Shown piece after piece: positions 676-56,795 of a stretch of DNA of 64,000 nt. Source of the stretch: Omnitrophica bacterium GWA2_41_15 (GTDB lineage: Bacteria; Omnitrophota; Gorgyraeia; Gygaellales; Profunditerraquicolaceae). The stretch is from positions 38,499-102,498 of the forward strand of contig CAKKQB010000028.1 in NCBI GenBank assembly GCA_919901915.1, read 5' to 3'. Position numbers and translations under genes: made by a program. The notes beneath the pieces are model-generated. The model worked only from the letters and a program-made list of their open reading frames with translations. It was not told where the DNA came from and made no database searches. How positions within the stretch are numbered: position 1 is the first letter of the stretch; each line of letters starts with the position of its first letter.

Positions 676-3123
676 CTAACTATTACAACCGAAAAAAATG
701 GCTTTATTATCAGTCGGTTCAACCTCTATTTTTGCGACAAAACCCCCATAATAGCTAATAGACCTAGAGACACTCCCACTCCAAGAGGAAAAAAGTTTCC
801 AATTACTTTTACTATTATTATCGCTACTGGTGAAACGGCTATTAGACACACCCCCAACATAGACATTATTACTATATACGGCCAGAGCAGTAACTTGATC
901 ATAGCCCGTATCACCTAACCATCGGAGCCATTTAATTGTAGGCATGGGGCTAGAAGATGTAGCGTCATCAATAATTTTCATAACGAATCCTTCATCAGTT
1001 ATGCCGCTATTAGTACCATTAAACTTTGTATTTCCACACCCCTCTTTACCGGTATTAAAATTAAGATAATTTTTAGACACCCCCCCAACATAGATATTTT
1101 TACCTTTCACAGATAAAGCGTTAACCCGGTCATCCCCATCTCCGCCTAACCACAACATCCAGCTTAAAGTAGGTTTGCCAACAGAATCCTCAATGATTTT
1201 CGCGACGAATCCTTCATCTTTTCTAGTAGGGCAAACCATACAAAAAAACCCCCCCCCAACATAGATATTTTTACCGCTCACAACCAAAGCAGTAACTTGA
1301 TCATAAGAACCTGTCCCATAGACACCTGTTTTGGCTAACCATTGACCCCACTTTAAAACAGGATTACCAGTCTCATCAGAAATTTTTATAACAAATCCAT
1401 CGCTATGGTCTTCTCTCTTCTTATCATCAAGTCCGGGTATTCCCCAGCCAACTGTACTAACAGACCGCCCCCCAACATAGATATCGCTACCATTCACAGC
1501 CAGAGCAAAAACTCGATCCTCACTATTTCCGCCTAACCATTGACCCCACTTTAAAACAGGCTTACCAGTCTCATCAGAAATTTTTATAACGAATCCATTA
1601 GGAAAAATACTCCACCCATCAGAGAGCCCGGTTATCGTCGACCAGCCAGTGCTTGACCCACAACCCCCCGCAACGTAGATATTAGTACCGCTCACAGCCA
1701 AAGCAGTAACTCGATCCTGCCCCATATCTCCTAACCATTGTCCCCACGCTATATCACCCTTAGTAGATTTATCAACAATCTTTATAACGAATCTCCTTAT
1801 ACCTGTACAACTGATATCTTTCCAATTATTGGCAATGGGCGTTGTTGACCAATTAGTTGTAGCCTTGGATTCCCCCCCAGCATAGATACTACTACCGTTC
1901 ACAACCAAATTAGTAACTCGATCAAAACTCGTTGCTCCGCCGTCTAAAAATTTACTCCACTTTCTACAAGCTTTACTAGTAGAAGAATCATAGCCGATTT
2001 TCATAACGAATCCGTTCGTACCTGTGTTACGGGCATCGGTAGTGGATGTCACAAAATTACTATTAGAATACGCCCCCCCAACGTAAATATTACTACCATT
2101 CACAGCCAGAGCAAAAACTCGATCCTCCTTATCGCTTATATCTAACCAAAAACCCCAAGCTAATGAAACAACGCTTGGATCAATAAGCAAAGGGTAATTG
2201 GAAAGAGGTTCTTTGATAGAGATAACTAAAGTATCTTGACCAATAATAGTGTAAGAAGCAGTTTTCTTACAACGATCACGTTTTGCAGTAGAGACGAGGC
2301 ATTGCCTCGTCTCTGCATTTGTCCAATAAACAAGAGGTTCTAAAGTAGCAAGAAGTTTTTCATCGCCAAAGCTTACATCACGTTTTAAGGCTTTACGCAC
2401 AGCATCCATTACGCAAGCGCGTTTTTTAGGGTCGGAATTATCTATGCCGGAAATCTTCATCGTTCTATAAATATTAACACTGCCGTTAGACTGTTGCTTA
2501 AGGGTTATGCTCGCGCCGGCATCAGCGGAGAACTTCCAGGTGTATTGGCTTAAATTATCAGGATGGTTAAAAGCCGTAGCTTGAATCCACTCTTTTAATC
2601 CTGCGCCGGAAGAAGATTGGGAAGCAAAATAAATAATAGTATCGGTTGACCGTTGATAAACCTGCGCATGGCCAAACGATTTAGACCTTGCCGTAAACTG
2701 TTTAAAAAGAACAGAACCCTTATCTAACTCCATAGTGAACGAAACAGTATCTTGTCCGTTTTCTATCTGAAAACGTTTTTTGACGGTATCTGATTTAGCG
2801 TCAAAAATAACGCGCATTTTTGCTTGACCCTGACGGTTGCCAAAGCCTTCGTCATTCCGGCGCAAGCCGGAATCCAGTCTGGGCTCTTGCATAGTAAATG
2901 TTACGGCATCAGGGCTAGTTTGAAATTGCGGTTTGCCAACAGATGGCTCTGGCGCGAGTTTAGATATTTGTTTAAGTATTCCTGCAACCATAGACAACTC
3001 TTGAGCTGTCGGACCGGGGATAGCCGCAAAAGTATTACTGCCTAAAAACCCCTCAAAAGGAAACAGGGTAAATGCCCATAAAACAACTAAACTAATTATT
3101 GATCTATATTTTCGCATTATCAT
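676..3123 (-). CDS. Secreted SBBP-type beta-propeller repeat protein, paralog A
   Basis: N-terminal signal peptide. At least 8 repeats of the form W(G/L)QWLG..DRV.ALAVNGSNIYVGG...GFV(M/I)KI. The N-terminal ~270 aa are near-identical at DNA level to 30072..31733. Stop is TAG. Copies of repeat elements lie in frame at 2285-2316 and 2851-2877. Confidence 0.6.
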   Translation of the reverse strand: MIMRKYRSIISLVVLWAFTLFPFEGFLGSNTFAAIPGPTAQELSMVAGILKQISKLAPEPSVGKPQFQTSPDAVTFTMQEPRLDSGLRRNDEGFGNRQGQAKMRVIFDAKSDTVKKRFQIENGQDTVSFTMELDKGSVLFKQFTARSKSFGHAQVYQRSTDTIIYFASQSSSGAGLKEWIQATAFNHPDNLSQYTWKFSADAGASITLKQQSNGSVNIYRTMKISGIDNSDPKKRACVMDAVRKALKRDVSFGDEKLLATLEPLVYWTNAETRQCLVSTAKRDRCKKTASYTIIGQDTLVISIKEPLSNYPLLIDPSVVSLAWGFWLDISDKEDRVFALAVNGSNIYVGGAYSNSNFVTSTTDARNTGTNGFVMKIGYDSSTSKACRKWSKFLDGGATSFDRVTNLVVNGSSIYAGGESKATTNWSTTPIANNWKDISCTGIRRFVIKIVDKSTKGDIAWGQWLGDMGQDRVTALAVSGTNIYVAGGCGSSTGWSTITGLSDGWSIFPNGFVIKISDETGKPVLKWGQWLGGNSEDRVFALAVNGSDIYVGGRSVSTVGWGIPGLDDKKREDHSDGFVIKISDETGNPVLKWGQWLAKTGVYGTGSYDQVTALVVSGKNIYVGGGFFCMVCPTRKDEGFVAKIIEDSVGKPTLSWMLWLGGDGDDRVNALSVKGKNIYVGGVSKNYLNFNTGKEGCGNTKFNGTNSGITDEGFVMKIIDDATSSSPMPTIKWLRWLGDTGYDQVTALAVYSNNVYVGGVSNSRFTSSDNNSKSNWKLFSSWSGSVSRSISYYGGFVAKIEVEPTDNKAIFFGCNS

Positions 3124-5031: not shown

Positions 5032-5098
5032 ATTTGTTAGCCAGTTGTTAACCGGTTTGCCAGTTTGCCGGTTAGCCGGTTAACCGGCAAATATATTT

Positions 5099-7462
5099 TT
5101 ATAATTTACGTGCTATTTTCTCAATCTCAAACGCCTCAATCACATCGCCTTCCAAAGTCTGATCAAATCCTGCCAGGCTTATTCCACATTCAAAATCAGC
5201 AAGGATTTCGCGCGCATCGTCTTTAAACCGCTTTAACGAAGAAAGCTTACCTTCAAAAACAACCTGCCCGTTCCTTACTAAATTAATCTGGCAATTCCGG
5301 GTAATCTTACCCTTAGTAACAAAGCAACCGGCAATTGTCCCCGCTTTTGATAATTTAAAAACCTTTCTTACTTCAGCGCTGCCTGAGAAAACCTTCTTTA
5401 TTTTAGGCTCCAACATTCCCTCTAACGCTGCTTTCAGCTCATTAACCAATTCGTAAATAATATTATAAATCTTTATCTCAATCCCCTCTTTAGCCGCCTG
5501 TTTTTTGGCTAAATCATCCGCGACAACATTAAATCCCATGATAAGAGCATTCGAAGCCACGGCTAATACCACATCAGAAGTATTTATATCACCCGCGCCA
5601 GCATGTATTATATTCAATTTGATTTCCGCGGTATCTATTTTACTAAAAGTTTCTTTTATCGCCTCGAGCGAACCCTGCACATCCGTCTTAATTATCAACT
5701 TTAATTCCTGAAGCTTTCCTTCCGCTATCTGAGCATGTAAATCCTCAAGATTAATCCTTTTTACCACCTGCATATGTTGCTGTTTTTCCTTTTCTAAACG
5801 CGTAACTGCTAATTCTTTTGCCTGATTCTCGTCCTCAATTACAAAAAATTGTTCACCTGCCTGTGGGATACCAGCTATGCCTAGAACCTCAACCGCGTAA
5901 GAAGGAGGCGCGGCAGTTATAGACAGGCCGCGATCATTAAGCATTGCCCTGATTTTACCATAAAATTTTCCTACGATAATATTCTCATTTAAACGCAGTG
6001 TGCCATTTTGCACGAGAAGAGTAGCAACAGGGCCTTTTGCCGGAGTAATCTTTGCTTCTATCACTACCCCGCAGGCGGGCCTTTTGGGATTACATCTTAA
6101 TTCTAACATCTGAGCTTCCAGAAGTATCATCTCAAGCAACGCATCTATCCCTTGGCCTGTCTTTGCTGATACCGGAACAATTATAGTTTTACCACCCCAA
6201 TCTTCAGCAGTAAGATCCATCCCCGCAAGCTGTTTTTTTACCCGGTCAATATCTGCCCCTTGTTTATCAACCTTATTCATAGCTACAATTATAGGCACGC
6301 CTGCCGCGCGGGCATGGTCAACTGCCTCCTGAGTCTGAGGCATTACACCATCATCCGCGGCCACCACCAAAACTACTATATCAGTAACACCTGCTCCGCG
6401 GCTACGCATAGCAGTAAAAGCTTCATGGCCAGGCGTATCCAGAAAAGTAACTTCACCGTGTTCTAAAATAACATGGTAAGCGCCAATATGCTGCGTGATA
6501 CCACCGTGCTCGGTATCCACAACCTTGCTCTTTCTTATAATGTCTAACAAAGAAGTCTTACCGTGATCGACATGCCCCATAAAAGTCACTACTGGAAATT
6601 TATGCCGCAAATCATCAGTTGAATCTTTTATTTCATGCGCGCGCAAAACTAACTCTTCTTTATTAAGGGCCTTCTTTATTTTATATCCGTATTTCTGACA
6701 AATTTTAACCACCACAGCTTCATCCAAAACCTGATTTATGTTTGCCATAACACCCATATTCATAAGGCTCTTCATAAAACCCGATAACTTCTCCTGCAAT
6801 TTTACAGCCAAATTTTTAACAATTACAGGAAACTCTAACTCAAGTTCTTTTAATTCAACCACAGGAGCCTCGACCTTAGCTTCGACCTTGACCTCAGGCT
6901 TTATCTCAACCTTAGCCTCAACCTTAGCCTCAACCTTTACTTCCTCAACCTTAGCCTCAGGTTTTATCTCAACCTTAGCCTCAACCTTAACCTCAGGCTT
7001 AGCCTCGACCTTAGCCTCAGTCTTTACTTCCTTAACCTCAGGCTTAGCCTCGACATTAGCCTCAACCTTAGTCTCAACCTCAGCCTTTACTTCCTTAGCC
7101 TCAACCTTAGTCTCAACCTCAGCCTTTACTTCCTTAGCCTCAACCTTAGTCTCAACCCTAACCTCCGTCTCAGCCTTAACCTTAGCCTCAGCCTTAGCTA
7201 CCTCAACCTTAGCCTTAGCCTTTATTTCCTTAGCCCTTATTTCCTTAGCCTCAACCTTTACTTCCTTAATCTCAGCCTTAATCTCAGCCTTTTTAACCGG
7301 TTTAGAAACAACTATCTTCTTAATTTTAGCCGCGGCATCAGCTTTAGGTTTGATTATTTTCTTAACAATCTTCTTAATCAAATTTATCTTCGGCGTTATT
7401 TTTTTAATCTTGCCCTTTTCTTCTTCCTTAGGAACTGTTTTTTCTTTCTTAATTTTTAGCAT
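5099..7462 (-). CDS. infB: Translation initiation factor IF-2 with an expanded KVEAK low-complexity N-terminus
   Basis: G-domain motifs [17 protein letters not shown] and NKVD, followed by the IF2 C-terminal domains. The N-terminal third is a K/E/V/A tandem repeat encoded by DNA tandem repeats at 6840-7300. Confidence 0.9.
6840..7300. repeat. Coding tandem repeat ('ccttagcctcaacc'-like units) inside infB
   Basis: Direct reading shows iterated cttagcctcaacc / ctcagccttagc units. This repeat also produces the spurious plus-strand STLAST ORF at 6738..7499. Confidence 0.8.
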
Positions 7463-10959: not shown

Positions 10960-12219
10960 TTATGCCTCGCTAAAAATCTCTTTCGACAACTCTATACCTC
11001 TCTTTTCAAACAAAGAATAAAACACGGGGATTATTCCTGAAGCCTTAAACCTACCTTTAACTTCCTTATCAGAACCTACATTCTCTATTGCATATGTAAA
11101 TAAATCTTCCAAAACAATCTGTCCGTCTTTTAAACCGTTTATTTGCGTAATATGAGTAATCTTCCTTGAGCCATCCACTAACTGTTCCTGCTGGATAATA
11201 AGATGGACTGCCGCCACAAACTGCCTATATATTGCATCCAAGTTAATCGGCAGTCCTGACGTAAGCACCATTGTTTCAATCCGGTAAACAGCCTCCCGGG
11301 GAGAATTAGCGTGCAAAACTGCCAAAGAACCACTGTGACCGGAGCACGATGCCTGAAGCATATCCAAGGCCTCTGAACTTCTGATTTCACCAAGAATTAT
11401 CCTTCCCGGCCGCATACGTAAAGAATTCCTAAAAAGATCTCCTATCGTTATTTCGCCTTTACCCTCTATATTCGAACCTCTCGCTTCAAGCCTTACCACG
11501 TGCTCCTGTTTTAAATGCAACTCCGCAACATCCTCAATAGTAACAACGCGCTCATCATTACTGATATAGCTCGAAAGCACGCCCAGCGTTGTGGTTTTAC
11601 CAGAACCGGTTGCCCCGGCAAACAGAACATTTACTTTTGCTCTTATGCAAGCGATTAAAAAATCCGCCATTCGATTATCTAACGTGCCAAGCTTAATTAA
11701 ATCTTCAACGGTTATTATTTCTTTCAGGAATTTTCTTATTGTTACAACAATTCCGTCCACTGCTAAAGGCGGAATAATAATATTCACGCGCGAGCCATCC
11801 TTAAGAGATACATCTACGTAAGGAGAAAGCTCATCCACCCTGCGCCGCGTAGGCGCCAACATTTTATATATTAAACACCTTAATTGCTGTTCATCATCAA
11901 ATATAAGATTGGACAATATCTTTTTACCATTTTTTTCAATATAAATCTTTTTTGGCCCATTAATCATAATCTCAGTTACGCTTGGATCATTCATAATGTT
12001 TTCTACCGGGCCGTAACCAGCTAATTCATTAACCAAGTCAGAAATTACTTTGTCTTTATCTCCATCCGATATTATCGCGCGTTCGCGAGAAACGATTTCT
12101 CCTAGAATTCGCCCTATAACCTTTCCTAATCCCTCTTTGTCTACTTTTTCTTCACAGAATATACCGCTATATTGCTCCAGAAGCTTCTGTCTTATTTCTT
12201 TTTTTAATTTTTTAATCAT
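10960..12219 (-). CDS. CpaF/TadA-family type II/IV secretion ATPase; orphan, with no other pilus genes nearby
   Basis: Walker A AGATGSGKTT plus Asp box, Walker B and His box, in the arrangement typical of CpaF/VirB11-like ATPases. Confidence 0.7.
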   Translation of the reverse strand: MIKKLKKEIRQKLLEQYSGIFCEEKVDKEGLGKVIGRILGEIVSRERAIISDGDKDKVISDLVNELAGYGPVENIMNDPSVTEIMINGPKKIYIEKNGKKILSNLIFDDEQQLRCLIYKMLAPTRRRVDELSPYVDVSLKDGSRVNIIIPPLAVDGIVVTIRKFLKEIITVEDLIKLGTLDNRMADFLIACIRAKVNVLFAGATGSGKTTTLGVLSSYISNDERVVTIEDVAELHLKQEHVVRLEARGSNIEGKGEITIGDLFRNSLRMRPGRIILGEIRSSEALDMLQASCSGHSGSLAVLHANSPREAVYRIETMVLTSGLPINLDAIYRQFVAAVHLIIQQEQLVDGSRKITHITQINGLKDGQIVLEDLFTYAIENVGSDKEVKGRFKASGIIPVFYSLFEKRGIELSKEIFSEA

Positions 12220-13340
12220 TTCTTCACCTGTATCCCTTCTAACAAAGCATCAACACATTTATCAAAAGAAACTTTTTTTATCAATTTGCCCTTACTAAAC
12301 AACACCCCCATCTTCTTACCAAAAGCGATCCCAATATCCGCCTGCCTTGCCTCTCCCGGGCCATTAACCTCACAGCCCATTACAGCCACTTTAATCGGTT
12401 TGCCGGTTAACCTGTTAGCCTGTTTGCCTGTTAAACGGGATAACGGGATAACGGGATAACGGGATAACGAATTTTCTAATTCTTTTATTATCTTAACTAA
12501 ATCCACCCCGCAACGGCCGCAGGTAGGACAACTTATAATCTCAGGGCCAAAACATCTCAAACCCAAAGATTCTAAAATGGCTCTGGCTGCCTTGATTTCT
12601 TGCCTTGGCTCATCAGTAAGCGATACCCTTATTGTATCACCTATTCCATCCATCAACAAAGCCCCTAACGCAATGCTGGATTTTATCCCTCCATTATACG
12701 AAGCGCCTGTCGCGGTAAGGCCTAAATGTAAAGGATAGTCGCTTAGCTTAGCTATTTTACGATACGCCTCTACAGTATCTAAAATATCCGACCCCTTAAG
12801 AGAAATAACAATATCGTGGAATTTAAATCTTTCTAAAATTTTTACATAATCTAACGCGCTTTTAACCATTTTATCCGCTTGTGACCGGCAAACCAGCAAA
12901 CCGGCTAACCGGCTAACCGATAACGATCCCGAATTCACCCCCACCCTTATAGGAATATGGTTAATTTTCGCTGCCCTAACTATTTCTTTAATCTGATCTT
13001 GCTTATAAATATTTCCGGGATTCAACCTAATTTTATCCGCGCCATTATCAATTGCCTCCAGCGCCAAACGCCAATTAAAATGAATATCCGCGGCTATCGG
13101 CAATTTTACCTTTAGTTTAATTCTTTTAATTGCCCGCGCGTCAAGGCTGTCTTTTATTGCTAAACGGACTATTTCACAACCAGCGCTTTCTAATTCTTTA
13201 AGCTGTCTAACTGTCTTTTCTATATCAGAAGTTTTGACCTTAGCCATTGACTGAATAGCAATGGGGTTCGCGCCGCCAATTTCTATATTACCAATTTTTA
13301 TAATTCTGGATTTGCGTCTTTTAATTACCATAAACACCAC
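12216..13340 (-). CDS. ispG: 4-hydroxy-3-methylbut-2-enyl diphosphate synthase IspG (GcpE), with two in-frame repeat insertions
   Basis: N-terminal TIM-barrel domain and a C-terminal 4Fe-4S domain (CPTCGRC). Insert peptides SRLTGKQANRLTGKP and SVSRLAGLLVCRSQ are encoded by ccggtta-type hairpin repeats at 12396-12469 and 12885-12925. Confidence 0.9.
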   Translation of the reverse strand: MVFMVIKRRKSRIIKIGNIEIGGANPIAIQSMAKVKTSDIEKTVRQLKELESAGCEIVRLAIKDSLDARAIKRIKLKVKLPIAADIHFNWRLALEAIDNGADKIRLNPGNIYKQDQIKEIVRAAKINHIPIRVGVNSGSLSVSRLAGLLVCRSQADKMVKSALDYVKILERFKFHDIVISLKGSDILDTVEAYRKIAKLSDYPLHLGLTATGASYNGGIKSSIALGALLMDGIGDTIRVSLTDEPRQEIKAARAILESLGLRCFGPEIISCPTCGRCGVDLVKIIKELENSLSRYPVIPLSRLTGKQANRLTGKPIKVAVMGCEVNGPGEARQADIGIAFGKKMGVLFSKGKLIKKVSFDKCVDALLEGIQVKK

Positions 13341-13360
13341 TATGTTAAATTATGTAATCT

Positions 13361-14443
13361 TCACTTAAACAATTTAGCTATCTTATCCCCAAACAATTTT
13401 AATATATCGTTATAAGTTACGAATAAGGCGAAAAAAACAATCATCACAACTCCAATTTGCGTAATAACGCGCTCAAGCTTAAGATTTAATGTTTTGCCCC
13501 TTATTTTTTCAATGCCTAAGAACAAAATGTGCCCGCCATCTAACACAGGAAACGGAAGAAGATTAAATATCGCCAGGCTCACGCTTATCAACCCCACCAA
13601 ATTTAAGATTGCGATTATCCCCTGCGAGGCAACCTTTGAGGTTATGATAAACATTCCCAGCGGGCCGGTTACTGATTCACGAAACGATACGCGGCCCGTA
13701 AAAATTCTCCAAAGCCCTTTATATGTCATCTCCGTCAGGTAACAGGTCTTATCTACAGCTAACAAAAAAGCCTTAAAAAAACCATGCCTTACCACAACCG
13801 CGTCATTATAATCAGGGGTTATGCCAAGCAGGCCTACCTTCTGTTTCGCGCCCAAAGTGCCATCTAAGTGTTTTTCTCTTATAGTAACATCTATTTTACG
13901 AACCTCATTGCCCCTAGCAACTGAAAGCAAAACATTAGCAGTTTCTTTTTTGTTGTAAATAATTTTTGTTAAGTCCTCCCAATATTCCACCTTTTGATTA
14001 TCTATGGCGATAATCGTATCACCGGCTTCTATCCCTGCCTTCTTTGCCCCAAAACCATCAATAAGGCCGCCTACTTTAGTAGTAAGCGTAGGGTAGCCAA
14101 CAAAAAATATAAACCAAAAACACAAAAATCCTAATATATAATTCAACAAGGCGCCGCTTGAAATTATCCAGAAACGTTTTCCTACTGGTTTTGAAAAATA
14201 CTCATAGCTCTGACCGCTGTATTCTTCAGGGTCATCTCCTGCCATCTTAACGTAACCACCCAAGGGTATTAAATTAATGCTGTATTCAGTATGGCCTTTT
14301 TTCTTTTTTAATATTTGCGGCCCAAAACCCAAAGAAAAATTCTCAACCCTGACACCCACTTTCCTGGCGGCAATAAAATGCCCAAATTCATGGACAAAAA
14401 TTAAAACGCTTAAAATTGTTAAAAAAATAATAAAGGTAATCAT
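13361..14443 (-). CDS. rseP: Site-2 zinc metalloprotease RseP
   Basis: HEFGH motif in TM1, an internal PDZ domain, and a C-terminal LDGG motif. Confidence 0.85.
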   Translation of the reverse strand: MITFIIFLTILSVLIFVHEFGHFIAARKVGVRVENFSLGFGPQILKKKKGHTEYSINLIPLGGYVKMAGDDPEEYSGQSYEYFSKPVGKRFWIISSGALLNYILGFLCFWFIFFVGYPTLTTKVGGLIDGFGAKKAGIEAGDTIIAIDNQKVEYWEDLTKIIYNKKETANVLLSVARGNEVRKIDVTIREKHLDGTLGAKQKVGLLGITPDYNDAVVVRHGFFKAFLLAVDKTCYLTEMTYKGLWRIFTGRVSFRESVTGPLGMFIITSKVASQGIIAILNLVGLISVSLAIFNLLPFPVLDGGHILFLGIEKIRGKTLNLKLERVITQIGVVMIVFFALFVTYNDILKLFGDKIAKLFK

Positions 14444-21647: not shown

Positions 21648-23129
<1,482 letters not shown>

Positions 23130-24551: not shown

Positions 24552-26291
24552 CTACTGCTTCTTTATAATCTTCCTCAATTCCTCCTTCGACGGCACGGCT
24601 TTTGTGGAAAATATTTCCTGATTATCCACAAGATACGCCGGGCCAAACATAACTCTTAGTTCTCTGTTAAGTTCGATATTCTTCCTTAAAAGATTTTTCC
24701 CTTCACTGCCCCTGGCGCACGCCTTTACCTCACTTAAATCCATACCGGCTCCGATACAATCATCCCACCAGGAACTTTTAGAATTTTGCGCCCGGCAACT
24801 TATGTAATTCCAAAACCTTTGCGGATAATACTTCTGTACGCATACCGCGCGTAAACACTCTTCAGTCTCAAAAGCGCCTCTTTGCGCGTCAAATCCATTT
24901 TCATTTTCAACCGCCAGAAAATGAATCTGGGGATCAAACTCCCTTGCTGTATCTAATAATCCCGCGGCATCTTCATCAAATAAACTTATAAATAAATCTA
25001 ATTTTTTATTTATTTTTAACCTGCTGATAAATTGGGAAATACCGCTGAATTCCGGCTTCAACATATAAAAATCGCCTTTTACCTCTAAATTACGTTTAAG
25101 ATCTTCAAATTTTTTCTCCTTATCAACTTCTTTACCTAAAAAATAGGCAGGCAGGCTTGATATAGAAAATTTCTTAATAAGGTCCTGCGCCTTTTCCCCG
25201 GGATAATATTCATAAGAAACAATTAAATTGGGGAAATCCCTTTTTAAGGCTTTAATCGGTGTTTGCGTATCGCATACCCTGCAATTCTTTGGGGTAATAA
25301 TCAAAAGATTAACCTTACCTGATTCTTCAAATGAACAACGAGAATCTAATTTCCCCGGATTATGGCACGTTCCAGCAAGGCCATCTTTCTTACAATTGGT
25401 ATCCTGAAAACAACGCGGCAATAAAGAAAGAACCTCTGGATCATCCTGTATTTTGTCCGAAAGACGCAGAGTTTCTATCTCATATTTTACTAGCTTATTA
25501 TCCTTTAAAGTAATGGTTGCCCTGCCTAACCTGCGCCCCTGCCAAGAGCTCCTTAAAAATAACGTATTAGCTATTTTTTCAAAAGAAGAAATCCCCTCTT
25601 CTTTTGAAAAAGAATCCTGTAAAATAACGATATCTACGCCTTTCACAGCGCTAATCAAATCAAGAGTGTCCTTCTGGGGCAAATAACTTAAAAGCACAAT
25701 AATATTAACAGGAATTTTTTTTAATTCTTCAACTGATTTTTTAAGCGCTATAATTGGCTCGATAATTTTGGAGCCCTCCAGCTTCTGCCTCGCGTAAGGA
25801 TCAGTTATCCCGACAATCCCGACTTTTATGTTTAAAATTTGTTTTATAATATAGGGTTTCACAAAAGGAAACTCATCCGTAGAAATATTGCTTGATAAAA
25901 AAACTAATTTTGTTTTGGCGGCATTATCCTGAAAAAAACTCCTGCCAAGATTAAACTCATCACTGCCGATATTCAAGGCATCATATTTCATCAATTCCAT
26001 TGCCCTAAGGTTGATGAGCGACCTCTCCGAGTCAAATTGCGTATTCTGCGTCCACTCATCCAAAAGGCCGCCGGCAAAGAAACCGCCGGAATCCAAAAGC
26101 AGGCTTTGAGGATATTTTTTCTTAATCTGCTTAATTAAACTTGCTCTGCGGCTAATACCGCCATCAATCTCTTTCGGACAGCTACAGGGATAAAGCATAG
26201 CGTGGGTGGAACCGGTATAAAGGATAGTAATTTCTTCAGCAAAACAAGTAAACATAAAACCATAAATACAAAATGCAAAAACGCAAATCAA
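24552..26291 (-). CDS. Exported hypothetical protein with a metallophosphatase-like N-domain and a Cys-rich C-domain; start is uncertain
   Basis: Signal-peptide-like ICVFAFCIYGFMFTCFA. The N-domain resembles 5'-nucleotidase but lacks the canonical metal-binding motifs. The ORF-track N-terminus at 26414 translates gcggatagcg/ctacgct repeats and is spurious. Confidence 0.4.
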   Translation of the reverse strand: MICVFAFCIYGFMFTCFAEEITILYTGSTHAMLYPCSCPKEIDGGISRRASLIKQIKKKYPQSLLLDSGGFFAGGLLDEWTQNTQFDSERSLINLRAMELMKYDALNIGSDEFNLGRSFFQDNAAKTKLVFLSSNISTDEFPFVKPYIIKQILNIKVGIVGITDPYARQKLEGSKIIEPIIALKKSVEELKKIPVNIIVLLSYLPQKDTLDLISAVKGVDIVILQDSFSKEEGISSFEKIANTLFLRSSWQGRRLGRATITLKDNKLVKYEIETLRLSDKIQDDPEVLSLLPRCFQDTNCKKDGLAGTCHNPGKLDSRCSFEESGKVNLLIITPKNCRVCDTQTPIKALKRDFPNLIVSYEYYPGEKAQDLIKKFSISSLPAYFLGKEVDKEKKFEDLKRNLEVKGDFYMLKPEFSGISQFISRLKINKKLDLFISLFDEDAAGLLDTAREFDPQIHFLAVENENGFDAQRGAFETEECLRAVCVQKYYPQRFWNYISCRAQNSKSSWWDDCIGAGMDLSEVKACARGSEGKNLLRKNIELNRELRVMFGPAYLVDNQEIFSTKAVPSKEELRKIIKKQ

Positions 26292-26410
26292 TGTTTTAGC
26301 GTTTAGCGGATAGCGTTTAGCGGATAGTTTATCATGTCCTATACGCTCTACGCTATGCGCTCTACGCTCATCTTGCTCTACGTTATACGCTTGACATTTG
26401 AATCTCTTTA

Positions 26411-28006
26411 TCATAGCCTTATCCCCTTCACTGATAAAATATTTTCTATTTTTTTTATCTCTTCCAAGATTTTCGCTGAAACAGGAGTATCCACATTTAA
26501 AACGCTTATTGCTTTTCCACCGGGCGCCTCGCGGCCAAAGGTCATAGCCGCAATATTAATATTGTATTTGCCTAAAAACATTCCCAGATTTCCGATAATA
26601 CCCGGCCTATCCCAATTCTCCACAAAAATCAAATCCCCCATAGGAATCACTTCAACATAATACTCATCAATCTTTACAATGCGCGGCTGTTTATTGGAAG
26701 AAAGGGTGCCTAAAATTCTCCTGGTTTCCTTATCGGTCTTAAGCTCCAATTGAATCAGGTTTACAAATTCCTCTTCCTTTGAAGATTTTGCCTCATTGAT
26801 TTTAATACCTCTTTCTTTAGCTAACGCCAAAGCATTGATAGAATTAACTGTCTCGCCAAGTATAGGAGTAAGCAATCCTTTAACCAAAGCTAATGTCAGA
26901 GGCGTTAAATTATGCCGGCTGATATCGCCGCTATAAATTATATTTAATTCTTTTAACCTGCCCTCAATTAGTTGACAGCTGAATAAGCCTGTCTTCTCTG
27001 CCAGATTAATATACGGCTCAATAGCCTTATACGCCTCTGGTTCCACGCAGGGGTAATTGGCGGCATTCTGAATACCTTTGCCTAAAAGCGCGTCAGAGAC
27101 AATATGTGCCACTTCGATTGCCACATTAACCTGCGCTTCTTCCGTGGAAGCGCCCAAATGAGGGGTGAGGATAACATTATTTAATTTTAAAAGCTCGCTG
27201 TCAGCCAAAAGCGGCTCATTCTCAAAAACATCCAAAGCAGCGCCGGAAACCTTACCTTCTTTAACCGCCTTAACAAGCGCCGCCTCATCAACAATACCGC
27301 CCCGGGCGCAATTAATTACGCGCACGCCTTTTTTCATAATCGCGAACTGTCCATCTGATATCATATGCTTAGTCTCGCTGGAAAGCGGCACGTGAACCGT
27401 AATGTAATCAACCCGCTGAAACAGCTCTTCTAATTCCACTACCTCTACCCCAATGCCTTGCGCGACTTCAAGCGACAAATACGGGTCGAATGCTAAAATC
27501 TTCATCCCGAATGATTTAGCCCTTTTAGCCACTTCTGTGCCAATCCTTCCCAATCCAACGATACCCAATATTTTACCATAAAGTTCAACACCCATAAACT
27601 TAGAACGTTTCCACTCGCCTAATTTTACCGAAGCATTTGCTTGGGGAATGCTCCTGGAAAGCGACAAAATCATACTCATTGTATGCTCGGCTGTAGAAAT
27701 AGTGTTACCCGCGGGCGTATTCATCACGATTATACCCTTTTGCGTAGCTGCCTCTAAATCCACATTATCTAATCCCACGCCGGCGCGGCCTATTACTTTC
27801 AGCCTGTCTGAAGCGCCAATAATATCCTTAGTTACCTTGGTAGCGCTTCTTACCACTAAAGCATCGTAATCTTTAATTATCTCTTTTAACATTTCCGGCT
27901 TTAAGTCTGTCTTCACATCAACCTGAAATTCTTTCACGTCTCTAAAAATTTTCAATCCCTCTTCTGATAACGCATCGCTAACTAATATTTTTTTCATTTT
28001 ACGCAC
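26411..28006 (-). CDS. serA: D-3-phosphoglycerate dehydrogenase with a C-terminal ACT domain
   Basis: 2-hydroxyacid dehydrogenase NAD-binding motif GIVGLGRIG, catalytic R/E/H residues, and ASB plus ACT C-terminal domains; 531 aa. Confidence 0.9.
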   Translation of the reverse strand: MRKMKKILVSDALSEEGLKIFRDVKEFQVDVKTDLKPEMLKEIIKDYDALVVRSATKVTKDIIGASDRLKVIGRAGVGLDNVDLEAATQKGIIVMNTPAGNTISTAEHTMSMILSLSRSIPQANASVKLGEWKRSKFMGVELYGKILGIVGLGRIGTEVAKRAKSFGMKILAFDPYLSLEVAQGIGVEVVELEELFQRVDYITVHVPLSSETKHMISDGQFAIMKKGVRVINCARGGIVDEAALVKAVKEGKVSGAALDVFENEPLLADSELLKLNNVILTPHLGASTEEAQVNVAIEVAHIVSDALLGKGIQNAANYPCVEPEAYKAIEPYINLAEKTGLFSCQLIEGRLKELNIIYSGDISRHNLTPLTLALVKGLLTPILGETVNSINALALAKERGIKINEAKSSKEEEFVNLIQLELKTDKETRRILGTLSSNKQPRIVKIDEYYVEVIPMGDLIFVENWDRPGIIGNLGMFLGKYNINIAAMTFGREAPGGKAISVLNVDTPVSAKILEEIKKIENILSVKGIRL

Positions 28007-28043
28007 CTCCTGATAGTTTTAATAACAATTCCCTCCCCCTTGT

Positions 28044-28136
28044 GAGACTGGGTCAAATAGCTGTGTCATTCCCGCGAAAGTGGGAATCCTGAGACTGGGT
28101 CAAATAGCTGTGTCATTCCCGCGAAAGCGGGAATCC
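28044..28136. repeat. Tandem duplication of a 'gagactgggtcaaatagctgtgtcattcccgcgaaagcgggaatcc' unit
   Basis: Two nearly identical ~46-nt units at 28044-28089 and 28091-28136. Each contains the gtcattcccgcgaaagcgggaatcc palindrome. Confidence 0.8.
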
Positions 28137-28163: not shown

Positions 28164-29303
28164 CTATACCCTCAAAAACACTTCCTCCGCCGCTTTTACG
28201 CCAGAACCTAATTCAAATTTGTATCCCATTTGAGTCAAAACTTTTTCCAGGCATGATATGCCGAGAATAATATCAAACTCTTCAATAAAACCCATATGGG
28301 CAATCCTGATCAATTTGCCTTTCATTTCATCCTGGCCTCCGGCAATGGTTATGCCGTAAGTATCGCGCATAGTTTTAACTAATTTCTCGCCGTCAAGGCC
28401 CGCGGGAACATTAGCCGCTGTAACCGCGTCAGAAGAATTACTGCCGGCAAATAATTCCAGTCCCAGCGCCTTCATCGCCGTTCTTACGGCAACCCCAAGC
28501 TTTTTGTGGCGCGAAAACACATTTTCTAAACCGTCCTCCTTAAGCATTTTTAACACTTCATTCAAGGCAATAATTAAAGTAATGGCGGGAGTAAAAGGGG
28601 TATCTGTTTTATCAAGCGCCTTTTTTGCTTTTTTTAAATCAAGATAATACCTAGGGCATTTCGCGTTTTCAACTAAGCCAAATGCCTTTGAACTTACAGA
28701 AATAAATCCTAAACCCGGGGGAAGCATCAGGCCTTTTTGCGAACCGGAAACCACTACATCGCAAAACCAAGCGTCGGTTTTAAGGTCAACAGCGCCTAAG
28801 CCGCTTATGGCGTCAACCACTAATACCGCCGGTGTATCTTTTATGATTTTACCAATAGCCTCAATATCGCTTTTCGCGCCGGTTGATGTTTCACATAAAG
28901 TTGTAAATACGGCTTTTATTTTTGGATTTGCTCCTAACCTGCGCTCTATCTCCTTAGGCTCAACCGCATGCCCCCATTCCACTTTAATAACATCACAATT
29001 TACATTATTCGCGCGACAGATCTCTGTCCAACGCTCGCCGAATTTTCCAGCCTCCACTATTATCACCGTGTCGCCGGGGGATAACAAATTTACAACTGCC
29101 GCCTCCATCGCGCCTGTCCCAGAAGAAGCTAAAATAAAAACATCGTTTTTTGTCTGGAATACATACCTTAGGCCGTCAGTCGTCTCTTTTAGAATTGCCT
29201 GAAATTGCGGAGTCCGATGATGAATTATCGGCCTGGACATCGCCTCGCAAACATACGGCGGTAATGGTGTTGGCCCGGGTGTTAATAAATAGTTTTTGCG
29301 CAT
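28164..29303 (-). CDS. Class V aminotransferase; phosphoserine / serine-pyruvate aminotransferase type, probably the SerC partner of the adjacent serA
   Basis: LLTPGPTP N-terminus and the SGSQKGL pyridoxal-lysine region. The 17-aa ORF-track extension ([11 protein letters not shown]) is a translated cgtatct heptamer repeat. Confidence 0.8.
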   Translation of the reverse strand: MRKNYLLTPGPTPLPPYVCEAMSRPIIHHRTPQFQAILKETTDGLRYVFQTKNDVFILASSGTGAMEAAVVNLLSPGDTVIIVEAGKFGERWTEICRANNVNCDVIKVEWGHAVEPKEIERRLGANPKIKAVFTTLCETSTGAKSDIEAIGKIIKDTPAVLVVDAISGLGAVDLKTDAWFCDVVVSGSQKGLMLPPGLGFISVSSKAFGLVENAKCPRYYLDLKKAKKALDKTDTPFTPAITLIIALNEVLKMLKEDGLENVFSRHKKLGVAVRTAMKALGLELFAGSNSSDAVTAANVPAGLDGEKLVKTMRDTYGITIAGGQDEMKGKLIRIAHMGFIEEFDIILGISCLEKVLTQMGYKFELGSGVKAAEEVFLRV

Positions 29304-29393
29304 AGACACCTCCTTGTGTGCGTATCTCGTATCTCGTGAATCGTATCTCGTCATTCGTCGTTCGCATTTCGTAACGATTCACGAGATACGAAC

Positions 29394-33519: not shown

Positions 33520-34242
33520 CTACATCCTAAATTTCTCGCCCAAATATACTGAACGAGCCTGCGGATTATTAACCAATTCTTCTGATGTCCCGGAAATCAA
33601 AATTCTGCCTTCAGCAATTAAATACGCCCTGTCAGTTATAGAAAGTGTCTCCCGGACATTATGGTCAGTGAGTAAAATCCCCAGGCCTTTTTTCCTTAGT
33701 TCCCTGATAATCTCCTGCGCCTCACTAACCACAATCGGGTCTATACCTGAAAACGGCTCATCTAAAAGTATGAACGAAGGGTTTGTCACTAACGCGCGCG
33801 TTATCTCAAGGCGCCTTCTTTCCCCTCCCGATAATGTATAAGCCTTACTTTTAGCAAGATGCGAAATATTTAATTCTTCCAACAGATAAGCGAGCCTCCT
33901 GTTTCTTTCAGCCTTACTTATAGATAGGGTCTCTAATATCGCCATAATATTTTCTTCCACGGTAAGTTTTCGAAATACAGAAGGCTCCTGTGAAAGATAA
34001 CCTATACCATAACGGGCACGCTCATGAATAGGCAGTGCCGTTATATCATTATTATCAAAAATTATTTTCCCGCGATTAGGCGCGATTACACCCACCACCA
34101 TATAAAACGTTGTAGTTTTTCCCGCGCCATTAGGCCCTAACAGGCCCACAATCTCACCGCGCAAAACCTGCATATTCACGCCCTTGACAACTTCCCTTCC
34201 ATCATAGGACTTAGCTAAATCTTTAATTTCCAATAAATGCAT
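33520..34242 (-). CDS. lptB: LPS export ABC transporter ATP-binding protein
   Basis: Walker [10 protein letters not shown], the ABC signature LSGGERRR and Walker B ILLDEP; 240 aa. Sits in the kdsD-kdsC-lptC/A-lptB synteny. Confidence 0.85.
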
Positions 34243-35275
34243 TTTTAGCGTCCTCTGTTGAATTTATAATTAACTTAGGCCTTCCAGTAAGAACAATCTT
34301 TTTATCTGAAGCGGTATAAAGCGCTTCTTCGCTGTAAGAAACATTTTCCCCGCGAGAAATCTTTACATTTCCCTTCGCGATAATCTTGTCTATTTGGCTT
34401 CCTATGGATTTCGGCCCTTGCTTTAATTCACCAGTAGGGACAGCGCAGTGCGCTGTCCCTACAGCTGTCCCTACGTTATCTTTGTGTTCCCTACCGGTCC
34501 GAATAAAATAGACATCCATTTTATCGCTCGAGATTTCAGATCCCTGCTGGCTGACTTTAACATTATTGCTAAATTGAGCGATATTTTTTTCATAATCTAC
34601 CTCAAGCGGGCCATCGCAGGTAATGATTATTTTTTCTTGTGATTTTACGCCTAAAAGCCCTTCTTTCTGAACAGGCTCAATGTCTAACCGCACATCGCGT
34701 TCTAAGGCAATCTGTTTTAAATCAGACTGCCCCTTTACCCCTGTCGCCGTCACAGTCATATTATCTCTTTTTATATTTACCGGATCACCTGTTGTAACAA
34801 CCCCGCCTTTTCTATCCCAATCCAAAGAATCAGTAGTTAGTTTTGTGCCGCCGGAAGTAGTAATAACAACATCCTGCTTTAGATTAACCTTACCATTTTC
34901 TTTATTGAAATCGCCTTTTTTAGCGCTAAGCCGAATATCTTCTCCTTTTCCATAAAAATTACCCACCACACTATCAAGCTTTACCTGCGATTGAAAAATA
35001 TCGGCTGTTTTAGCGCGAAGATCCCATTCCTTTTTACCTTTTTCTCCCTGGCCAGCAACGCTAAAATCATTAATCTGCTGATCTGCTTCAATAGATGACT
35101 GTTCAGCGGCAAATGAGAAATTATAAATACCAAAACATAAATAACAAAATAAACATAAAGCGTAAAATAAGCTCGTATCTCGTGAATCGTATCTCGTGAA
35201 TCGTTTCCCAACGAGATACGAGATACAAGATACAAAATACGAGATACGAACGACGATTCCTATTCTAAATATCAT
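34223..35275 (-). CDS. OstA-like LptA/LptC-family periplasmic LPS transport protein; start is uncertain
   Basis: Beta-jellyroll OstA-like repeats with the pattern K.N.....NV.......I..D. Lies between kdsC and lptB as in the canonical operon. The N-terminal ~35 codons translate the heptamer repeat at 35172-35260. Confidence 0.55.
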
Positions 35276-35807: not shown

Positions 35808-35859
35808 ATTTGTGAACCGGTGAACCGGTGAACTGGTTAACCGGTTAACCGGCTAACCC

Positions 35860-48748: not shown

Positions 48749-49796
48749 TTTTTATGATTGTTAATTCGATACGCAAGACTAAAATTCGTGAAGCGTGAGG
48801 CGTGAAGCGTGAAGCGTAAAGCCGCGCCGCGTCCTTTTCTGTGGTGATAATTGTGTCTATACCCTTATCAACAGAATCTTTGATAATTTTATCTATATCT
48901 GTCTTGATGTAATTATGGTGGTCGGGAAATTTAAAAGATAAGCCTATTTTAGCGCCGAGTGAAATAATCAAATTTTCAAAGGAATCGGGGTCTCCTATGC
49001 CGCAAAATATACTTACGCGCTTATCCTTAAGTATATCTGTCCCAAATAATTCAGCGCTTTTTTCAAGATTATATAATCCTATGGGTTTATGAACACTTTC
49101 CGCGATCAATGTTTTTGGATTAATCTTACTTAAAATATCTTTAAGCTCATCCAGTTTCACCCCAAAATCAACCTTGGTCAAAAAAAAGATATCCGCGCGC
49201 CTCAAGCAAGAAAGCGGCTCGCGCAAGATCCCCCTGGGTATCATATGGCGGTTACCAAAGGGATTAACAGCATCAATAGTTACAATCTCTAAATCTTTTT
49301 TAAGCCTCCACTGCTGAAAGCCATCATCCAACATAACCGTATCCACGCCATAATCTTTAAGCGCTCTTTTTGCCGCCCTAATTCTATCCGCATCCACAAT
49401 TACCGGAATATCGTTTAATTTTTTAGAAAGCATGTAGGGCTCATCGCCCATGGTTTCATAGCGGATAGCGGATAGCGCCTGCCTGCCGGCAAGGCAGGGA
49501 TAGCGGATAGATTTTCTTTTATAACCGCGGGTTAATATTGCGACTTTGCGGCCTTCCTGTTTTAAATACCTCGCGATAACTTCAACTAAAGAGGTTTTTC
49601 CTGTCCCGCCTACGGTAATATTACCCACGCTGATGACTTTAACATTCAGGCGATTCTGCCTAAGGAAACAAAAAAAGATTAAACCCCTGATTACTAATCC
49701 ATAAATAAGGGAGATAAGAAATAGGAAACCTTTTACAATAGCCGGGCCAATTCCCTTATATTTATCTGTAGCTAAATTATAAAGATACTTTTTCAT
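48702..49796 (-). CDS. lpxK: Tetraacyldisaccharide 4'-kinase
   Basis: P-loop GNITVGGTGKT. Two in-frame repeat inserts: SIRYPCLAGRQALSAIRY (49459-49510) and RFTPHASR (48786-48823). Confidence 0.85.
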   Translation of the reverse strand: MKKYLYNLATDKYKGIGPAIVKGFLFLISLIYGLVIRGLIFFCFLRQNRLNVKVISVGNITVGGTGKTSLVEVIARYLKQEGRKVAILTRGYKRKSIRYPCLAGRQALSAIRYETMGDEPYMLSKKLNDIPVIVDADRIRAAKRALKDYGVDTVMLDDGFQQWRLKKDLEIVTIDAVNPFGNRHMIPRGILREPLSCLRRADIFFLTKVDFGVKLDELKDILSKINPKTLIAESVHKPIGLYNLEKSAELFGTDILKDKRVSIFCGIGDPDSFENLIISLGAKIGLSFKFPDHHNYIKTDIDKIIKDSVDKGIDTIITTEKDAARLYASRFTPHASRILVLRIELTIIKNEQEFYNRLLGLYSF

Positions 49797-52320: not shown

Positions 52321-52328
52321 GCGCTAAC

Positions 52329-52715
52329 TTGATAGACGAATACGATTATTTTTTTGAATTAGAATACGCAAAAATAGAACCGTTCTTTTTGGATCTAATT
52401 GCGAAATTATACTTCCAAAAATTCAAGCCTACAAATTTAGTATTATCTCATAAACGGAAAGAAGAGAAAAAGTATATTAAAGAATACATAGAGCAGGCAG
52501 TTAAAGAAAATTTAAAGATATTGGGACTCTCTGAAACGGAAGATTCATGGGCTAATGTTCAAAACGCCCATCGGGGATTGGCTAAAAAATATCATCCTGA
52601 CCTTAATCCAGGGAAAAACACGCACGAAGAGTTTATAAAAATTCAAGGTGCGTATGAGTTTTTAGAAAATGATAGAAAAAAAATTTTCCTATTAAATCGT
52701 CTGCTTCGCCGATAA
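52329..52715 (+). CDS. Small J-domain (DnaJ-like) protein
   Basis: C-terminal J domain with an HPD motif (LAKKYHPDLNPGKNTHEEFIKIQGAYEFL) and a non-homologous N-terminus. Confidence 0.6.
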   Translation: MIDEYDYFFELEYAKIEPFFLDLIAKLYFQKFKPTNLVLSHKRKEEKKYIKEYIEQAVKENLKILGLSETEDSWANVQNAHRGLAKKYHPDLNPGKNTHEEFIKIQGAYEFLENDRKKIFLLNRLLRR

Positions 52716-52741
52716 AAAGCCAAGAATTTGTTTCTTCGGCA

Positions 52742-54046: not shown

Positions 54047-54085
54047 ATTGGTTCTTTAGCGCTAAAAACACAAGACCTGACACTT

Positions 54086-54430: not shown

Positions 54431-54459
54431 AATCGCAGCCAATCGCAACTGAATAATAT

Positions 54460-54490: not shown

Positions 54491-54524
54491 AAATTGTTAA
54501 AAAAAAATGAGAAAGGAGCGTAGG

Positions 54525-56759: not shown

Positions 56760-56795
56760 ATCATTAGTGATTAGTGATTAGTGCCCCTTTAATCT

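Follow-up and report, generated by a model that had tools for sequence, protein, structure and literature searches.

In-frame octamer and heptamer arrays in ispG and other genes of Omnitrophota, a probable family of dispersed repeats

How can an essential gene such as ispG carry repeat DNA in frame at two places of its coding sequence, and to what kind of element does that DNA belong? The question is raised by a stretch of 64 kb from contig CAKKQB010000028.1 of Omnitrophica bacterium GWA2_41_15 (called the window below), in which a sequence-only reading had noticed two repeat segments in ispG and a related peptide in waaA and had compared them with the Rickettsia palindromic elements (RPEs). 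We found that these segments belong to a larger set of arrays with units of 7 or 8 nt, located between and within genes of the window and of related genomes. They probably represent a dispersed family of tandem repeats, either selfish or neutral, that has spread in this Omnitrophota genome and its relatives and is tolerated in surface loops. The central idea of the earlier reading, in-frame repeat DNA resembling RPEs with one family present in several proteins, is supported, and the phenomenon is broader than was proposed.

Both segments are located in an open reading frame (ORF) at 12216-13340 on the minus strand, which starts with GTG and encodes 374 aa. The product matched PF04551 with 443 bits (E=6.7e-133; residues 12-371 against positions 2-342 of the 343 in the profile) and the Aquifex aeolicus IspG 3NOY (E=1e-90), and its translation contains SRLTGKQANRLTGKP and SVSRLAGLLVCRSQ in frame and without a stop codon. 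The assignment to ispG (gcpE) and the stop-free reading of both segments were therefore borne out. In an alignment of 36 sequences, residues C271, C274, C323 and E330 were invariant and aligned to the Aquifex motifs CPTCGR ... MGC.VNGPGE; we take these three cysteines and one glutamate to be the ligands of the [4Fe-4S] cluster. The catalytic motifs and those surrounding the iron-sulfur (Fe-S) residues were likewise invariant. An AlphaFold2 model built with 36 homologues had a mean predicted local distance difference test score (pLDDT) of 85.8, a predicted template modelling score (pTM) of 0.82 and an alternating strand/helix pattern. Residues 297-312, which lie in site 1 (the segment nearer the C-terminus), formed the only stretch with pLDDT below 50, and the other dip was the block 141-150 in site 2 (mean pLDDT 56). 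The predicted structure is thus a confident TIM-barrel plus Fe-S domain fold with low confidence at the two insert regions only. Judged by this model, IspG appears to tolerate both segments as low-confidence loops on an otherwise confident fold, as had been anticipated for surface loops.

Repeats are hard to assemble, and the genome is a metagenome bin in which a second ispG might lie outside the 64-kb window. The locus could accordingly be an artefact of mis-assembly, a decaying ispG whose functional counterpart lies elsewhere, or a gene whose inserts are removed by bypass or splicing. The identical IspG protein was obtained from two assemblies, a 121.7-kb metaSPAdes contig at ~34x and an independent Logan assembly, and the repeats are therefore not an assembly artefact. 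More than 100 orthologues from NCBI, JGI, ENA and Logan have the same two slots, the closest homologues being labelled Candidatus Omnitrophota. The catalytic residues are intact, the gene order uppS-cdsA-dxr-rseP-ispG is kept in relatives, and only one PF04551 ORF was found in the window. The inserts are stop-free and a multiple of three in length, which is the opposite of bypass elements. Artefact and pseudogene were both rejected on the two assemblies, the intact residues and the slots in orthologues; an explanation of this kind is hardly credible, and the pseudogene alternative raised in the sequence-only reading was not upheld.

Site 1 is a complete octamer-array hairpin module of 71 nt (12398-12468, minus strand) encoding IspG residues ~291-315 (SLSRYPVIPLSRLTGKQANRLTGKP). 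Its sense strand follows the formula (GTTATCCC)x4 - GTTTAAC - (NGGYWAAC)x4. The left arm (12437-12468, minus strand) reads (GTTATCCC)x4 in sense and (GGGATAAC)x4 on the plus strand; Tandem Repeats Finder (TRF) assigned to it a period of 8 with 4.5 copies of AACGGGAT at 100% identity, and it is identical base for base in the relatives L083, L084 and L086. The central loop GTTTAAC (12430-12436, minus strand) is the centre of the palindrome CCCGTT-T-AACGGG and has the form GTTNAAC in every copy of the module. The right arm (12398-12429, minus strand) is composed in sense of AGGCAAAC AGGCTAAC AGGTTAAC CGGCAAAC. The whole site is an imperfect palindrome, in which every unit and its partner form a 6-bp helix with a 2x2 mismatch after it. 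Folding gave -36.2 kcal/mol (z=-5.3) on the plus strand, which is antisense to ispG, and -19.8 kcal/mol (z=-2.4) on the mRNA strand, an asymmetry that arises because G-U pairs on one strand correspond to C-A mismatches on the other. In three of four genomes, the mRNA strand formed only a weak hairpin. Compared with Aquifex IspG, site 1 adds 17 residues, placed in a loop of the Fe-S domain that connects the helix after CPTCGR to the strand bearing the third cluster cysteine.

Site 2 (12886-12925, minus strand) is a direct array of five octamers encoding IspG residues 141-154 (SVSRLAGLLVCRSQ). Its units on the plus strand are CGGCAAAC CAGCAAAC CGGCTAAC CGGCTAAC CGATAACG (TRF period 8, 4.5 copies), and they belong to the unit family of the site-1 right arm in inverted orientation. 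No significant hairpin was detected at site 2 (z -1.6 to -2.8 on the mRNA strand and ~0 on the plus strand). The site is longer than the corresponding part of Aquifex IspG by only two residues, and native sequence was therefore replaced rather than added to. It stands in place of a helix, EKxLLxKYGxPTPEA, that is kept in the IspGs of Firmicutes, Deltaproteobacteria, Nitrospirota, Cloacimonadota and Actinobacteria. The waaA insert (55831-55894, minus strand, within waaA at 55467-56759, minus strand) consists of eight direct octamers, in sense GGGTGAGC GGGTTAAT GGGTGAGC GGGTTAAC GGGTTAAC GGGTGAAT GGGCAAAC CGGCAAAC, and showed no hairpin when both strands were folded (z ~0). The peptide NGLTGEWANRQ, reported earlier as inserted in waaA, is indeed present there as part of a 14-residue insertion relative to the Aquifex WaaA 2XCI.

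These results modify the sequence-only description of two hairpin insertions in ispG. A hairpin, although an asymmetric one (z=-5.3/-2.4), is real at site 1, whereas site 2 is a direct octamer array; folding of both strands ruled out a hairpin at site 2 and in the waaA segment alike. Similarly, the term insertion holds for the 17 added residues of site 1, while site 2 has taken the place of a native helix (+2 residues relative to Aquifex). The boundaries given earlier as 12396-12469, 12885-12925 and, in waaA, 55833-55896 were mended to 12398-12468, 12886-12925 and 55831-55894.

A search of the 64-kb window with two consecutive GG[CT][AT]AACC units, allowing at most two mismatches, gave 24 matches against 0.24 expected. 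The matches fell in five sites, namely the two in ispG, the one in waaA and two intergenic ones, so the link between the ispG and waaA segments is right at the DNA level and the claim of one repeat family in several proteins was confirmed. The first intergenic copy (5046-5093) is a hairpin with fold z=-3.9 on the plus and -5.6 on the minus strand. The second (35812-35858) contains three copies of GTGAACCG followed by GGTTAACC-type units (fold z=-4.1 and -5.1).

The octamer family is not the only repeat of this kind, as the window is rich in short tandem arrays of period 7 or 8, mostly with 4-5 copies. Intergenic arrays are often paired with an inverted array and then form very stable hairpins on both strands (z -4 to -8). 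Near-perfect arrays of period 7 or 8 with at least three copies numbered 14 in the 64 kb of this window, 12 in 153 kb of Omnitrophota relatives, one in 882 kb from 78 non-Omnitrophota ispG loci and none in shuffled sequence. Arrays of these two periods were therefore ~200-fold enriched in the window over the control loci, and periods 6 and 9-15 showed no enrichment in the same count. The outgroups and period controls were loci from a genome-collection scan with an IspG alignment, with almost no close relatives among the matches listed.

At least eight arrays of the window are intragenic and in frame. Those internal to proteins are the two in ispG and the one in waaA, one in an LpxL-ELM1 fusion, two in lpxK, one in a GT4 interdomain linker and one in the C-terminal tail of proS. 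The heptamer array (GCAATAC)x4.7 (47328-47360, minus strand) lies in the LpxL-ELM1 fusion ORF (46799-48748) at residues ~463-473, and its stop-free reading gives the cyclic peptide motif NTQYAIR; RNTQYAIRNT was also found at IspG site 2 of P0020, P0044 and P0035. A CTATCCG heptamer array (49458-49510, minus strand), in frame in lpxK (48702-49796), encodes SIRYPCLAGRQALSAIRY; a GC-rich near-palindrome, CCTGCCTTGCCGGCAGGCAGG, is nested in this array and splits it. IspG site 1 of P0014 and P0095 has the composite peptide SIRYPCLAGRQALSAIRY too. Several other arrays inside ORFs lie upstream of the start of the Pfam domain in over-extended ORFs and are therefore effectively intergenic. The ORFs at 21648-23105, 24552-26414, 28164-29354, 34223-35275 and 62270-63361 run upstream through stop-free heptamer arrays, the purA domain, for example, beginning at residue 66. 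Such extension inflates the N-termini and may mislead gene callers.

A Pfam scan of the ~50 ORFs of the window revealed no transposase, no REP-associated tyrosine transposase (RAYT; REP, repetitive extragenic palindromic sequence) and no reverse transcriptase; only xerC/D, topA and dprA were present. With Rfam 15, no match in the window reached the gathering threshold, and 12200-13400 gave none even at E<=1. Matches to internal promoters or intrinsic terminators in ispG were no more numerous than in shuffled sequences.

We compared the two slots in 120 Omnitrophota IspGs and their DNA content in eight relatives. Both positions were variable in all 120. IspGs of outgroups from six other lineages have neither segment; the expectation that orthologues would lack them held in this respect, but the segments are not specific to this genome. 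The deep-branching L001-L003 and L077 have short non-repeat linkers, and arrays occur in the shallower clade, where both slots are always filled by something. The content of site 2 is AAATTCC x4.5 in L083, AGTCGCC x5 in L087, GTTTACC x4 in L090 and CACCAGAR x10 in L088, the window and its nearest relative contain GTTAGCCG-type octamers, and L086 and L089 have no array. Site 1 is filled either by the octamer module or by heptamer arrays, of the CTATCGA type encoding LSTIDYRLSTRP or with TCCATGG or ACGGTTA units. Of 20 arrays in 130 kb of the relatives' neighbourhood, 11 fall inside the 1.1-kb ispG.

Smaller elements are nested in these arrays. A GC-rich CCTGCC..GGCAGG palindrome encodes LPAGRQG or CLSGRQA, and a piece of the form LPAGRQG/CLSGRQA/PACRQAG was present in more than 10 IspG orthologues, inside an array of site 1 or site 2, which looks like a second small family of palindromic inserts. 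A longer nested element gives a peptide containing ..SPSLEPSRAKSRD... It was seen inside the GGCAAAC arm of the module in three host genes (DNA GGTTCGACAGGCTCACCATCCCTCGAACCATCCCGAGCGAAG; peptide GKWFDRLTIPRTIPSEVEG...SPSLEPSRAKSRDGQTGKP), its carriers being L119 and L151 (IspG), L172 (IleS) and L140 (PheT) and the proteins P0004 and P0033. This suggests either a long variant of the module or an element that targets arrays.

The lengths of the inserts are quantised. At site 1, inserts of the octamer type were 17, 25 and 33 aa long and those of other types 13 aa (52 sequences), 20 aa (9) and 27 aa (5), and at site 2 lengths of 9, 16 and 23 aa were found. All 120 alleles are in frame and differ by whole steps of 7 or 8 residues, that is, by three units, which is the expected product of unit gain and loss filtered by selection on the reading frame. 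A unit of 7 or 8 nt is not a multiple of three, so adding or losing a single one changes the frame. Arrays of 4-10 units lie inside ORFs, and those in ispG, waaA, lpxK and others might be phase-variable contingency loci that switch these genes by slippage. Copy number is polymorphic at one intergenic locus, orthologous between L133 (n=6) and L141 (n=4). However, with 120 of 120 IspG alleles in frame, no frameshifted variant was seen among the contigs bearing these genes, arrays of about four units offer little length for slippage to be efficient, and IleS, PheT, IspG and Dxs cannot be switched off in a free-running cell. Contingency switching is therefore very improbable.

Peptides similar to SRYPVIPLSRLTGKQANRQTGKP are nearly unchanged in ~20% of Omnitrophota IspGs. 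Together with the constant filling of both slots in the shallow clade and the displacement at site 2 of a helix kept by all outgroups, this could indicate that the inserts are adaptive features of the protein, surface loops or linkers selected for their peptide, with the DNA repeats being only their origin. Against this, sister alleles bear chemically unrelated peptides, the same peptide occurs in unrelated enzymes at unrelated structural positions, conservation is found at the nucleotide level with synonymous positions included, and AlphaFold2 predicts disorder for both segments. Selection on the peptide is thus a quite unlikely explanation, if slightly less so than phase variation.

The module is dispersed well beyond ispG. 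A metagenome scan with the exact 24-mer of the left arm identified 81 stretches, four of them in ispG; host genes were confirmed by Pfam, and in-frame copies were read in contigs of 38-47% GC. In these Omnitrophota-like contigs the full module was in frame in IleS, PheT (three slots), UvrA, HisF, Lnt and IspG, and Dxs contained the left arm alone, located exactly between two Pfam domains. In PheT of L103/L140, the three array slots differ in content between close contigs, e.g., IVNRLTGSPVSPLE versus LVIPLSRYPFIPLE. Intergenic copies were also found in metagenome contigs. Every copy spanning an ORF has GTTATCCC on the sense strand, the opposite orientation placing TAA in each frame cycle, and the inserts spanning ORFs are always a multiple of three in length and stop-free. 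The module is 66-72 nt long among copies. Alignment of 14 copies with 40-nt flanks revealed no target-site duplication, and similarity stops within 2-3 nt of the arrays.

Contigs reaching 74% GC also contained the GTTATCCC array, for the most part outside ORFs and together with GTTNNCCC variants. Contigs of 57-74% GC (e.g., L113, L120, L153 and L160; L093-L172 set) contained direct arrays of GTTATCCC together with GTTGCCCC, GTTAGCCC, GTTACCCC and units like them, mostly outside long ORFs. Isolated direct arrays were present in a few viral contigs. The octamer unit type is therefore not confined to Omnitrophota, and a viral vector was ruled out as the viral contigs never carry the module. Among heptamers, units common to several genomes were clear for GCAATAC and CTATCCG, in a sample picked via the GTTATCCC array and with permissive one-mismatch clustering.

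Phylogenetic analysis with both sites masked indicated that the site-1 module is polyphyletic in IspG. Sister alleles that are 90-92% identical in protein may have the module in one and a heptamer array in the other. The ispG genes of L083 and L092 are 98-100% identical outside two patches, one at site 1 and one at the 3' end. In the flanking 15-39 nt of these patches, an identity of 0.99 gives way to values of 0.77 and 0.47, the ordinary level between lineages, and L086/L091 behaved alike. Such patches are the signature of short-patch homologous recombination between ispG alleles, and no donor was found in the sampled alleles. Polyphyly and the patches of sister pairs rule out purely vertical inheritance of the site-1 module.

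The 3' patch of L083 contains a second octamer module (2100-2175) that extends the ORF (..LRELENSSACYPVSLLASSTG), as in the proteins P0003, P0010 and P0036. The ~15 nt before it nearly match those before the internal copy (GAATTAGAGAATTCG against GAATTAGAGAGTTCG, one mismatch), which hints at homology-guided copying between the two sites.

The copy number of the arrays has a mode of 4 and the arrays a median length of 33 nt, with n=4 in 43 of 81 occurrences of the left-arm 24-mer and, in a second count, in 48 of 87; the peak at four to five units and ~33 nt is common to 7-mers and 8-mers. The nucleotide identity of the site-1 module among four genomes is 0.88-0.96, compared with 0.69-0.75 for the rest of ispG and 0.45-0.54 at third codon positions. 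Both features speak for the view that the arrays are selected cis-acting signals of the nucleic acid within coding sequence, serving as periodic platforms for a DNA- or RNA-binding protein or as hairpin or G-quadruplex (G4) switches in transcription, mRNA stability or replication. The four-unit preference is shared with the G4-forming GGGNATC repeats (PMC4692102), and 24 pairs of four-octamer sites in Geobacter were read by their authors as regulator sites (PMC2700814). The ispG slots persist across the clade, and the intergenic array pairs form the very stable hairpins described above. On the plus strand at 12437-12468, (GGGATAAC)x4 combines four G3 tracts and loops no longer than 7 nt and is thus a predicted G-quadruplex motif; it and, in L084, (GGGCAAAC)x4 are formal G3N5 x4 motifs on opposite strands.

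Other observations are difficult to reconcile with such signals. Sister lineages swap the module for unrelated heptamer arrays with no raised divergence elsewhere in the gene, L086 and L089 lack an array at site 2, and the hosts are housekeeping genes with no functional link to one another. The weakness of the site-1 hairpin on the mRNA strand, seen in three of the four genomes, also counts against them, and neither an Rfam match nor a promoter or terminator signal was found. The heptamers AAATTCC, GTTTACC and GCAATAC, which are not G-rich, also occur in 4-5 copies; sharing the same mode, they rule out G4 formation as the general cause of the four copies. A role as selected signals is on balance unlikely. 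With a probability that is small and a shade lower again, the arrays could be what is seen of an uncharacterised system able to read or write DNA of short period. In the reading version a trans-acting factor would recognise about four units of 7-8 nt, so that ispG, dxs, ileS, pheT and others would be dual-coding, specifying a protein and also a nucleic-acid signal of regulatory or structural kind. In the writing version an activity that writes repeats or initiates recombination would install and exchange arrays of ~33 nt at fixed slots. If such a system exists, its signatures would be the near base-perfect conservation of (GTTATCCC)x4 between diverged genomes, the ruler of four units or ~33 nt that 7-mers and 8-mers share, and the recombination patches at the modules.

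A dispersed repeat family tolerated in loops remains the probable explanation. Family membership, excess over chance, dispersal, filtering by orientation and frame, loop location, slot turnover, length quantisation and swaps by recombination were all observed here, and they may be connected as follows. The ispG and waaA segments are in-frame copies of the family, whose unit is an octamer of the type NGGNNAAC (complement GTTNNCCN). In a complete module of ~70 nt, a GTTNAAC centre separates about four units from about four inverted ones, with 6-bp helices split by 2x2 mismatches; single arms also occur as direct arrays, and the parallel heptamer arrays behave alike. Survival within a gene would need a stop-free orientation, a length divisible by three and a surface loop or interdomain linker, and the insert would presumably be read through as a floppy peptide of low complexity on an otherwise normal enzyme. 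A slot, once present, persists while its content turns over. Arrays gain and lose units, in coding DNA visibly only as three-unit steps, probably by replication slippage, and new sites may be seeded by copying or template switching guided by homology or microhomology, with no need for a cut-and-paste transposase.

Several points weigh against this explanation. That the inserts are translated is deduced from the statistics of frame and stop codons. Module identity of 88-96% between genomes whose ispG genes are 69-75% identical, with 45-54% at third positions, is not what neutral junk should show; to account for it, recent spread, a concerted evolution of the copies or selection acting on DNA or RNA has to be added. 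Free slippage predicts no peak as narrow as that at 4-5 units (~33 nt) for both 7-mers and 8-mers, and simple slippage leaves the restriction to periods 7 and 8 without explanation. Furthermore, ispG is struck far more often than its neighbours, for which loop tolerance alone may fall short. The idea of seeding by microhomology comes from one case, the 3'-end module of L083 (GAATTAGAGAATTCG vs GAATTAGAGAGTTCG). The period limit, the four-unit mode, module conservation and the preference for ispG therefore keep alive the views that invoke cis-acting signals or another system.

Among systems of this kind, the RPEs are, to our knowledge, confined to the alphaproteobacterial genus Rickettsia. They are palindromic, multi-copy elements of ~150 bp in ten sequence families, which lie in frame in housekeeping genes and encode a peptide compatible with the fold of the host protein (PMC10969869). 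Both they and the Omnitrophota module are short, palindromic and multi-copy without coding capacity of their own, and both occur between genes and, with unusual frequency, in frame in unrelated housekeeping genes, the hosts being IspG, WaaA, IleS, PheT, UvrA, HisF, Lnt and Dxs in Omnitrophota. However, RPEs are not built from tandem short units, whereas the Omnitrophota element has 66-72 nt, about 4+4 octamers and a 7-nt centre, with single-arm and heptamer relatives and persistent slots whose content turns over like cassettes. The comparison with RPEs thus stands for repeat DNA read through in frame within genes but not for family membership: by its described size, architecture and host, the element is not an RPE.

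The RPEs are the closest functional parallel, and the closest architectural parallel is found in Geobacter metallireducens, where four tandem octanucleotides (GTTGCTYN) form sites that are mostly paired on opposite strands with variable spacing (Aklujkar et al., 2009, PMC2700814). The same genome also has hepta- and nonamer classes, including a four-heptamer family within and between genes, and its sites were guessed to bind regulators of the integration host factor (IHF)/HU type (PMC2700814). The preference for about four units, the pairing on opposite strands and the multi-copy dispersal are shared. The unit sequences and the phylum differ, and the Geobacter study described neither in-frame translation within essential enzymes nor slots that turn over across a clade nor a swapping of alleles. 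The Omnitrophota arrays agree with hepta/octanucleotide arrays in general, having units of 7-8 nt in about 3-5 copies, between and within genes and often as opposite-strand pairs.

The cyanobacterial short tandemly repeated repetitive (STRR) sequences are tandem heptamer repeats as well. GGGNATC heptamers of Xanthomonas and Nostoc are tandem, mostly intergenic and have a modal copy number of four (PMC4692102), and tandem TAACTGA heptamers are found in Beggiatoaceae (PMC4679880); both are present in hundreds of copies per genome, with unknown function (PMC4692102, PMC4679880). In formal terms, (GGGATAAC)x4 is the octamer counterpart of GGGNATC x4, which forms G4s. In each of these families of heptamer simple sequence repeats one unit dominates per genome, whereas many types of 7- and 8-mers are found here, often as hairpin pairs and commonly inside ORFs.

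Transposable elements of the miniature inverted-repeat type (MITEs) and REPs or bacterial interspersed mosaic elements (BIMEs) are likewise small, non-autonomous, palindromic and dispersed, and intergenic copies of the Omnitrophota element are stable hairpins as well. Unlike MITEs, the element has no target-site duplication. It is an imperfect palindrome throughout, and no terminal repeats distinct from the body and no similarity to insertion sequence ends were seen among the aligned copies. REPs are extragenic by definition, whereas the arrays described here are frequently intragenic (at least eight in the window). Translational bypass elements, such as that of T4 gene 60 and the byps of yeast mitochondria, are short structured insertions in essential coding sequence. 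They are not a multiple of three or contain stops, and they need matched take-off and landing codons. The Omnitrophota inserts, in contrast, are always in frame and stop-free, and translation by read-through is therefore expected. No description of these array elements in Omnitrophota was found in the searchable literature.

Beside the RPEs, the Omnitrophota arrays would be a second, independent case of selfish repeat DNA that has entered essential genes on a large scale, in an uncultured phylum and with a different element design. They may provide a natural map of insertion-tolerant loops in IspG, Dxs, IleS, PheT, UvrA, HisF, Lnt, WaaA and LpxK, and account for recurrent odd peptides of low complexity and for length variation in Omnitrophota annotations. 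Hypervariable slots can mislead alignment, phylogeny and gene calling. The paired octamers of Geobacter, the STRR sequences and the GGGNATC and TAACTGA heptamers may be one widespread class, and the period of 7-8, the ruler of about four copies and the nucleotide-level conservation are concrete anomalies that can be tested.

Some further features of the window were noted. Nearly all genes in the first 50 kb (1-49800) are on the minus strand, followed by a short plus block (50497-55164). The window contains a large lipopolysaccharide (LPS)/3-deoxy-D-manno-octulosonic acid (Kdo) gene cluster with lptB/C/A, kdsA-D, three GT9 genes, the lpxL fusion, lpxK and waaA, in which the in-frame arrays are concentrated. 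A small gene (ORF 56796-57164), whose product belongs to the family of 23S rRNA-intervening sequence proteins (PF05635, E=5e-37), is located between waaA and xerC/D and is bracketed by inverted heptamer arrays, ATTAGTG x3 at 56763-56783 and CCCTAAT/CACTAAT x~5 at 57171-57203; the arrangement resembles a cassette enclosed by array arms. Between serA and an aminotransferase gene, the gap contains at 28043-28136 two tandem copies, 97% identical, of a 47-nt unit with the hairpin TTCCCGC-GAAA-GCGGGAA, a repeat type distinct from the 7/8-mers. In infB (minus strand, 6866-7290), the N-terminal part of IF-2 shows a long degenerate 12-nt/63-nt/171-nt periodicity (AGCCTCAACCTT-like), a low-complexity coding repeat unrelated to the 7/8-mer arrays. 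Finally, a 198-nt unit is repeated 2.1 times with 77% identity at 1335-1747, in a large ORF (676-3123) without a Pfam match.

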